Of a stretch of 64,000 nucleotides of DNA, positions 11,370 to 11,543 are shown one piece after another. The notes beneath the pieces were generated by a model. It searched no databases. It saw only the letters and a list, made by a program, of their open reading frames with translations, and was not told the DNA's origin. The DNA is from a plasmid, in assembly GCF_053078305.1 (NCBI RefSeq), contig NZ_CP166875.1. One strand, written 5' to 3'. A program made the translations under genes and the position numbers. Positions within the stretch are counted from its first letter, which is position 1. Each line of letters starts with the position of its first letter.

Positions 11370-11543
11370 GAACATGTACCCGGACAGCGGACAGCGGACA
11401 GCGGACAGCGGACAGCGGACAGCGGACAGTGCCATCCGTTCGGGCGCAGTGTGATGCGCCGGGAGACGGAAAAAAATCCGCCTGACACAAAGAAAAACTT
11501 CGGTTACCTGATGTGGCGTAAACGTAACTGTGTATTTCTGTAA
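11370..11543 (+). pseudogene. duplicated traU 3' end fragment with expanded GGACAGC heptad tract
   Basis: near-identical to 9480-9624 at DNA level; encodes ...CHPFGRSVMR.ETEKNPP.TKKNFGYLMWRKRNCVFL. Confidence 0.65.

Follow-up and report, generated by a model that had tools for sequence, protein, structure and literature searches.

The seven-copy heptanucleotide array that we characterised among the transfer genes of an F-like plasmid is very probably a neutral, hypermutable simple-sequence repeat (VNTR) inside a dead fragment of traU. As the best-supported account of its origin, we propose replication slippage at a two-unit proto-repeat that would have been freed from selection by a partial duplication of the gene.

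The traU relic and its surroundings

The window, by which we mean the whole 64-kb stretch of plasmid DNA that was analysed, contains the transfer region of an F-like plasmid, and near-identical E. coli plasmids carry matching annotations. The genes run in the order traC, trbI, traW, traU, trbC, traN and onwards, with a block of low-GC cargo and a second traU tail, hereafter the relic, lying between traU and trbC (Table 1). The GC content of the cargo is 38-46%, as against 51-61% in traW and traU. When the relic was aligned with the end of intact traU, the two differed by seven substitutions, and the sole gap corresponded to a 35-nt expansion of the repeat. The translation of the relic matched positions 266-304 of the 306 positions of the Pfam TraU domain (PF06834, E = 1.1e-7), that is, its last 39. 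Both the alignment and the Pfam match bear out the preliminary description, in which the tail of traU was said to be duplicated. A functional TraU carries the complete domain in one open frame; the relic does not, as the first ~285 codons of traU are absent from it. Consistently, the equivalent segment in relatives is labelled by PGAP as a 'TraU family protein' pseudogene, incomplete, with the N-terminus missing and usually frameshifted.

Table 1. Positions of the features discussed in the text, given in coordinates of the window.
Feature	Position	Strand	Basis or remark
traC	4993-7623		ORF list; followed by trbI
traW	8003-8635
Intact traU, 330 codons	8632..9624	+	ORF, translation; same protein WP_000817328.1 in many relatives
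traU segment duplicated downstream as the relic, 143 nt	9482..9624	+	Alignments
Ancestral two-unit proto-repeat (CGGACAG)x2	9497..9510	+	Inside intact traU
Low-GC cargo separating the two traU tails, ~1.7 kb	9625..11365	+	ORFs, GC, absence in CP027375
Cargo hypothetical ORF, 180 codons	9638-10180	+	Annotated hypothetical protein in relatives
Cargo hypothetical ORF, 148 codons	10909-11355	+	Stop TAA at 11353-11355
Relic, 3'-terminal ~47 codons of traU with the stop, 178 nt	11366..11543	+	Alignment, Pfam, PGAP in relatives
Perfect heptanucleotide tandem array (CGGACAG)x7	11381..11429	+	Variable repeat; TRF, regex count, sequence
A7 run in the relic	11470..11476	+	Second indel hotspot; run lengths, shifted translations
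First ORF downstream of the relic, hypothetical, 110 codons	11570..11902	+	No Pfam match
trbC	about 12131-12769
traN	13228-15144

The second of the two cargo ORFs, of 148 codons, terminates before the relic begins, and thus the repeat is located in no intact gene. None of the 180-, 148-, 110- and 126-codon ORFs of this region reached the Pfam cut-off. The ~730 nt of low-GC sequence between the two cargo ORFs (10181-10908) hold a gene annotation in no relative; the only long ORF there is a 263-codon one on the minus strand, accepted by no annotation, and in AP042484 the equivalent stretch carries IS600. In plasmids of the CP027375 type, which lack the cargo, traU runs straight into the sequence found here after the relic, and the last 10 nt of traU in such cargo-free plasmids are of the relic type. 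The relic is therefore either the original traU end, pushed downstream, or a duplicate that arose on the arrival of the cargo.

Other observations were made in the same part of the transfer region. Between trbC and traN lies the 126-codon hypothetical ORF (12766-13146), which is conserved in relatives as a 381-nt gene but has no Pfam match, and the trbC-traN interval of pVirR1 likewise carries an HNH endonuclease gene. The stretch from traU to traN looks like a general hotspot for cargo. In NZ_JBRERP010000002.1, a 5' fragment of trbC, an incomplete pseudogene, was found at 4525-4614 upstream of the intact trbC. Cargo insertions in the traU-traN interval seem repeatedly to leave relics of gene ends.

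Truncation is accompanied in the relic by disabling changes that differ between relatives, as is typical of a decaying pseudogene fragment. At least three of the seven substitutions that separate it from the intact tail alter an amino acid, including one from Trp to Arg. The A-run reads GG-A7 here, GG-A6 in seven relatives and GGG-A7 in one, whereas it is GGG-A6 in every intact traU of the E. coli type that was read. In the Salmonella relics the start-like ATG at 11374 reads ATA or has been lost by deletion, and the relic of AP042555 is split in two by an IS110-family element (annotated as 'RNA-guided transposase'). That element occupies 3272-4597 of NZ_AP042555.1, which corresponds to window position ~11471, about 40 nt past the seven-unit array. 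The view of the duplicate as decaying, put forward in the preliminary description, is thus upheld by the pseudogene annotation, the substitutions, the frameshifts in the A-run, the loss of the ATG in Salmonella and the IS110 element.

The array and its copy number in related plasmids

Tandem Repeats Finder reported the array with a period of 7, 7.0 copies, 100% matches, a score of 98 and the consensus CGGACAG. The preliminary description had counted six units at 11381-11422; both this program and a regular-expression count give seven, the last occupying 11423-11429, and the base that follows is T rather than C. By identical counting, intact traU has two units, exactly two where about two had been noted before. 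A perfect array of seven 7-nt units (49 nt) is expected by chance ~3e-21 times per 64 kb, so that chance is excluded as its source. Besides this array, the window holds only one perfect multi-copy array, an in-frame 9-nt tract in traD. Instability driven by DNA structure was considered and rejected: the array showed no hairpin potential, its DNA fold, flanks included, being no better than that of shuffled sequence (z = +1.17). Secondary structure does not seem likely to drive the instability of the array, which in lacking hairpin potential fits simple slippage rather than structure-driven change.

CGGACAG arrays as such are not informative on this locus. A scan of species-representative genomes for tracts of (CGGACAG)x4 or longer gave at least 120 unrelated contigs, among them Streptomyces, Saprospiraceae/Lewinella, Acidimicrobiia and various metagenome-assembled genomes; there were no enterobacteria and no sign of a link to traU among the titles listed. 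Such generic arrays are a common heptamer repeat of GC-rich genomes. One metagenome-assembled genome, Dive96_bin1.162, has many CGGACAG arrays, several of them at contig ends, which suggests that some GC-rich genomes carry the heptamer as a dispersed repeat.

The relic is carried by about 25 of the about 3,575 PLSDB records that match traU, and by 36 E. coli RefSeq records. We read 18 relic records and one metagenome contig directly, and about half of the copy numbers were obtained from alignment spans. Among the sequences read directly, two units occur in CP042297, CP027343, CP024291, CP141592 and Salmonella Poona CP019190; three in CP015239 and AP042484; four in AP042688; five in CP027641, CP027367 and CP067431; six in CP045714 and the metagenome contig OGQR01003068; seven in the window and AP042555; and eight in Salmonella Pomona CP147853. 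The allele of the window, meaning seven units together with its downstream context, was found in neither annotated collection; the closest is the six-unit allele of pFHI_NMBU_11_02 (CP045714). No contraction to a single unit was seen among the alleles, and hence the process that changes copy number looks biased towards expansion.

Head-to-tail, perfect copies of a short unit, together with alleles that differ by whole units (2 to 8) among near-identical flanks, are what characterise a VNTR or slipped-strand locus, and both were found here. Six plasmids share a 690-nt flank without a single difference, and yet carry 2, 5, 2, 5, 3 and 2 units. Over 3.1 kb upstream, CP045714 (six units) and CP027641 (five units) show no substitution and the window (seven units) differs from each of them by two, while AP042555 (seven units) and AP042688 (four units) again show none. 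The length of the relic tract is, as judged from these alignments, changing much faster than its point sequence. Three backgrounds show independent expansion: E. coli plasmids with either of two downstream contexts, and a Salmonella lineage; in the latter, ~10% of the flank positions differ, and the tracts have eight versus two units. Nothing was thus seen, in the comparison across related plasmids, of the uniform copy number that would speak against the slipped-strand hotspot envisaged in the preliminary description; with 2, 3, 4, 5, 6, 7 or 8 units between identical or nearly identical flanks, that proposal holds.

The purity of the tract also appears to matter. Among relics with a pure tract, 13 of 25 are expanded (span-inferred records included), and about half stay at two units. 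None of the 24 relics in which a point change breaks up the tract (GGACAGCGGGCAG, TGACAGCGCGCAG, TGACAGCGGGCAG; three read directly, the rest taken from alignment spans) is expanded, a contrast for which Fisher's test gives p = 3e-5, although the phylogenetic relatedness of the records means that this value overstates their independence. Interrupted two-unit relics thus appear never to have expanded.

Could the length differences be errors of sequencing or assembly, in the form of wrongly resolved repeats rather than real alleles? An extra T in the relic of CP027641, an unannotated GenBank record, could be a homopolymer error. Nevertheless, (i) the longest tract, of 56 nt, is far below read length, (ii) the alleles differ by exact multiples of 7 and consist of perfect units, (iii) separate assemblies, made in different laboratories and countries, repeatedly show the same alleles, and (iv) the tract of the intact gene on the same molecules never varies. 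We regard an artefact as scarcely credible.

The constancy of the intact gene was seen throughout. Its tract is 14 nt long, with two units, in 18 of the 18 relatives read. The proto-repeat, about 38 codons before the stop, falls in the stretch that encodes Pro-Asp-Ser-Gly-Gln (ccg gac agc gga cag, 9495-9509). A synthetic query of intact traU with three units retrieved no PLSDB record at 99% identity or above, and all of the best 25 matches showed a 7-nt gap. An exact scan for ATGTACC followed by (CGGACAG)3 found no species-representative genome contig; its sole match was one metagenome contig, in which the pattern lies in the relic context. The occurrence of an expanded tract in a working traU was rejected on these results. 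Gain or loss of one unit in intact traU would shift the frame within the conserved C-terminal part of TraU and would presumably be selected against; that TraU function would be lost through such a frameshift is suggested by the conservation of the domain.

Slippage and recombination as possible sources of length change

These observations can be arranged into a sequence of four steps. First, functional traU holds the two-unit proto-repeat. Second, the ~1.7 kb of low-GC cargo would have been gained between traU and the next gene, in an event that probably duplicated the last 143 nt of traU; as the anatomy stands, the upstream copy completes the working gene, and the downstream copy is an orphan with neither an N-terminus nor a promoter. 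Third, the orphan copy would pay no cost for the gain or loss of a 7-nt unit, and slippage of strands during replication could accumulate for this reason, probably faster as the tract grows longer, giving the present 2 to 8 units and the seven found here. Fourth, the intact copy would be held at two units by selection for conjugation. The mismatch repair of E. coli is not known to act on loops larger than about 4 nt, and loops of 7 nt would then escape it. Slippage and its acceleration with tract length are inferred here, as are the instability within a single lineage and its rate, for which the comparison of assemblies provides the basis. A dependence of slippage on tract length has been described in a review of phase variation (PMC11868660).

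Alternatively, plasmid copies might exchange units of the same neutral repeat, by unequal crossing-over or gene conversion dependent on RecA, and most changes of copy number would then arise in this way. This is conceivable in that a cell contains a few copies of an F-like plasmid and these form multimers, and that jumps of several units separate plasmids with identical flanks (two versus five, and four versus seven units). Tracts of 14-49 nt are, on the other hand, very short substrates for RecA-mediated exchange, and conversion from the intact tail can reset the relic to two units but cannot expand it. The full series from two to eight units is, moreover, what stepwise slippage predicts. Slippage and unequal recombination between sister plasmids cannot be separated by sequence alone; on balance, we consider a predominant role of recombination unlikely and favour slippage.

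Regulatory roles considered and comparison with known systems

A tract of this kind might be suspected of being a contingency locus. The number of units would then act as a phase-variation switch, toggling the translation of a small relic peptide and, via the site at which ribosomes terminate, its coupling into the 110-codon ORF at 11570 and further into trbC and traN; alternatively, it would tune the processing of the mRNA, as in hmw of Haemophilus influenzae. The length of the unit is not divisible by three, the tract is hypervariable, and it lies within the tra operon, 141 nt upstream of the next ORF. A short ORF could start at the ATG at 11374, which is preceded by GGTGGTG, and its stop moves with the number of units (11543 for two, five or eight units, and 11454 for four or seven). 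There is also precedent for 7-bp repeats that modulate expression (PMC2424069).

Most of what is seen among the relatives runs against such a switch. All three frame classes are present with no sign of preference, about half of the pure-tract relics remain at two units, and in most relatives the supposed link between frame and unit number is upset by independent frameshifts in the A-run. The Salmonella relics, in which the ATG is ATA or deleted, still vary from two to eight units. The IS110 element of AP042555 lies between the tract and the downstream ORF; this ORF is not the same across the backgrounds, in all of which expansion occurred, and here, where its counterparts in relatives are annotated as hypothetical, a Shine-Dalgarno-like AGAGGA of its own precedes the ATG by 9 nt. 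A consensus scan of 10800-12200 detected no promoter-like site on the plus strand and no terminator, on which grounds a promoter or terminator role of the tract was rejected. The locus does have the hypermutable tract of a phase-variable locus, but this tract is located in no expressed ORF, promoter or 5' leader. Not being placed to toggle expression, it lacks the defining feature of a contingency locus, and we consider the switch decidedly improbable. The preliminary description was right in its arithmetic that a 7-bp unit shifts the frame; there is, however, no gene at this place for the frame change to switch, and its suggestion that the duplicate might be phase-variable is not supported, given that the upstream ORF stops before the tract, ~285 codons of traU are missing, no promoter-like site is present and every frame class occurs.

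One may speculate on a graded 'tuning knob', in which the number of repeats sets the site of action of ribosomes, or of an RNase, on the tra mRNA just ahead of the 110-codon ORF, and hence, in this plasmid lineage, the expression of trbC and traN, distal genes of pilus assembly and mating pairs, and the frequency of conjugation. In a second version, should the cargo be excised by homologous recombination between the two tails, the expanded tract would decide whether a working or a frameshifted traU results. We rate these as a shade less probable even than the switch. The tract seems to have no regulatory role, and we retain the reading of a neutral repeat.

A known RNA family at the locus was also sought and rejected, as Rfam gave no match within 9000-13000, and the matches elsewhere in the window are the usual antisense RNAs of F plasmids. 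Those above the gathering score were AS-traG, AS-traI, AS-pc02, sok (twice) and CopA, which are typical of IncF plasmids, at 20472-20557, 30179-30255, 35193-35335, 36593-36749, 37549-37639 and 49268-49439. The two copies of sok suggest the presence of two hok/sok modules.

The relic repeat most resembles the VNTR loci used in MLVA of E. coli, for instance of STEC O157, which are likewise short perfect repeats whose unit number varies among near-identical isolates, presumably by slippage and without a regulatory role. In an outbreak study, one VNTR locus varied among the outbreak isolates (PMC5320650). Unlike the MLVA loci, the relic repeat resides in a pseudogene of traU in the transfer region, and in a minority of F-like plasmids (25 of the ~3,575 PLSDB records). 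With the hmw1A/hmw2A repeats of H. influenzae it shares a heptanucleotide unit, a hypervariable number and a position upstream of an ORF (PMC2424069; reviewed in PMC11868660). There, 9-28 7-bp repeats lie in the promoter region and their number correlates with the transcript level (PMC2424069), whereas no promoter was detected for the orphan fragment that contains the relic tract, and no expressed gene depends on this tract.

Two further comparisons can be drawn within conjugation regions. The traD ORF (25132-27330) contains a perfect array, (AACAGCCGC)x6.9, at 26990-27051, which encodes an in-frame Gln-Gln-Pro tract. The traD tract of F-like plasmids is similar to the relic repeat in being a perfect array of the same tra operon, but its 9-nt unit keeps the frame and is tolerated in a working gene, while the 7-nt unit is tolerated only in the dead copy. 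The relic also resembles other partial duplications that flank cargo between conjugation genes, in which the low-GC segment is bordered by a second copy of the 3' end of the gene before it. It differs from these in that the traU remnant carries a proto-repeat, so that the same 14 nt are found with and without selection on one molecule.

A literature search on pseudogenes or tandem repeats of traU and trbC returned nothing relevant, and no description of the locus as a marker was found; as far as our searches show, the relic repeat has not been described before. For annotation, some caution is in order, as the 80-codon ORF at 11301-11543 is spurious, a product of the seven-unit allele. The repeat possibly offers a fine-scale typing marker for the F-like plasmids of cattle-associated and Shiga-toxin-producing E. 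coli and of Salmonella. Its wider importance is low, in that it explains an oddity of sequence. What it does illustrate is the control that selection and repeat purity exert over the birth of a microsatellite: a single molecule carries the same 14-nt proto-repeat twice, the selected copy being fixed at two units and the free copy ranging from two to eight, with the interrupted versions unexpanded.
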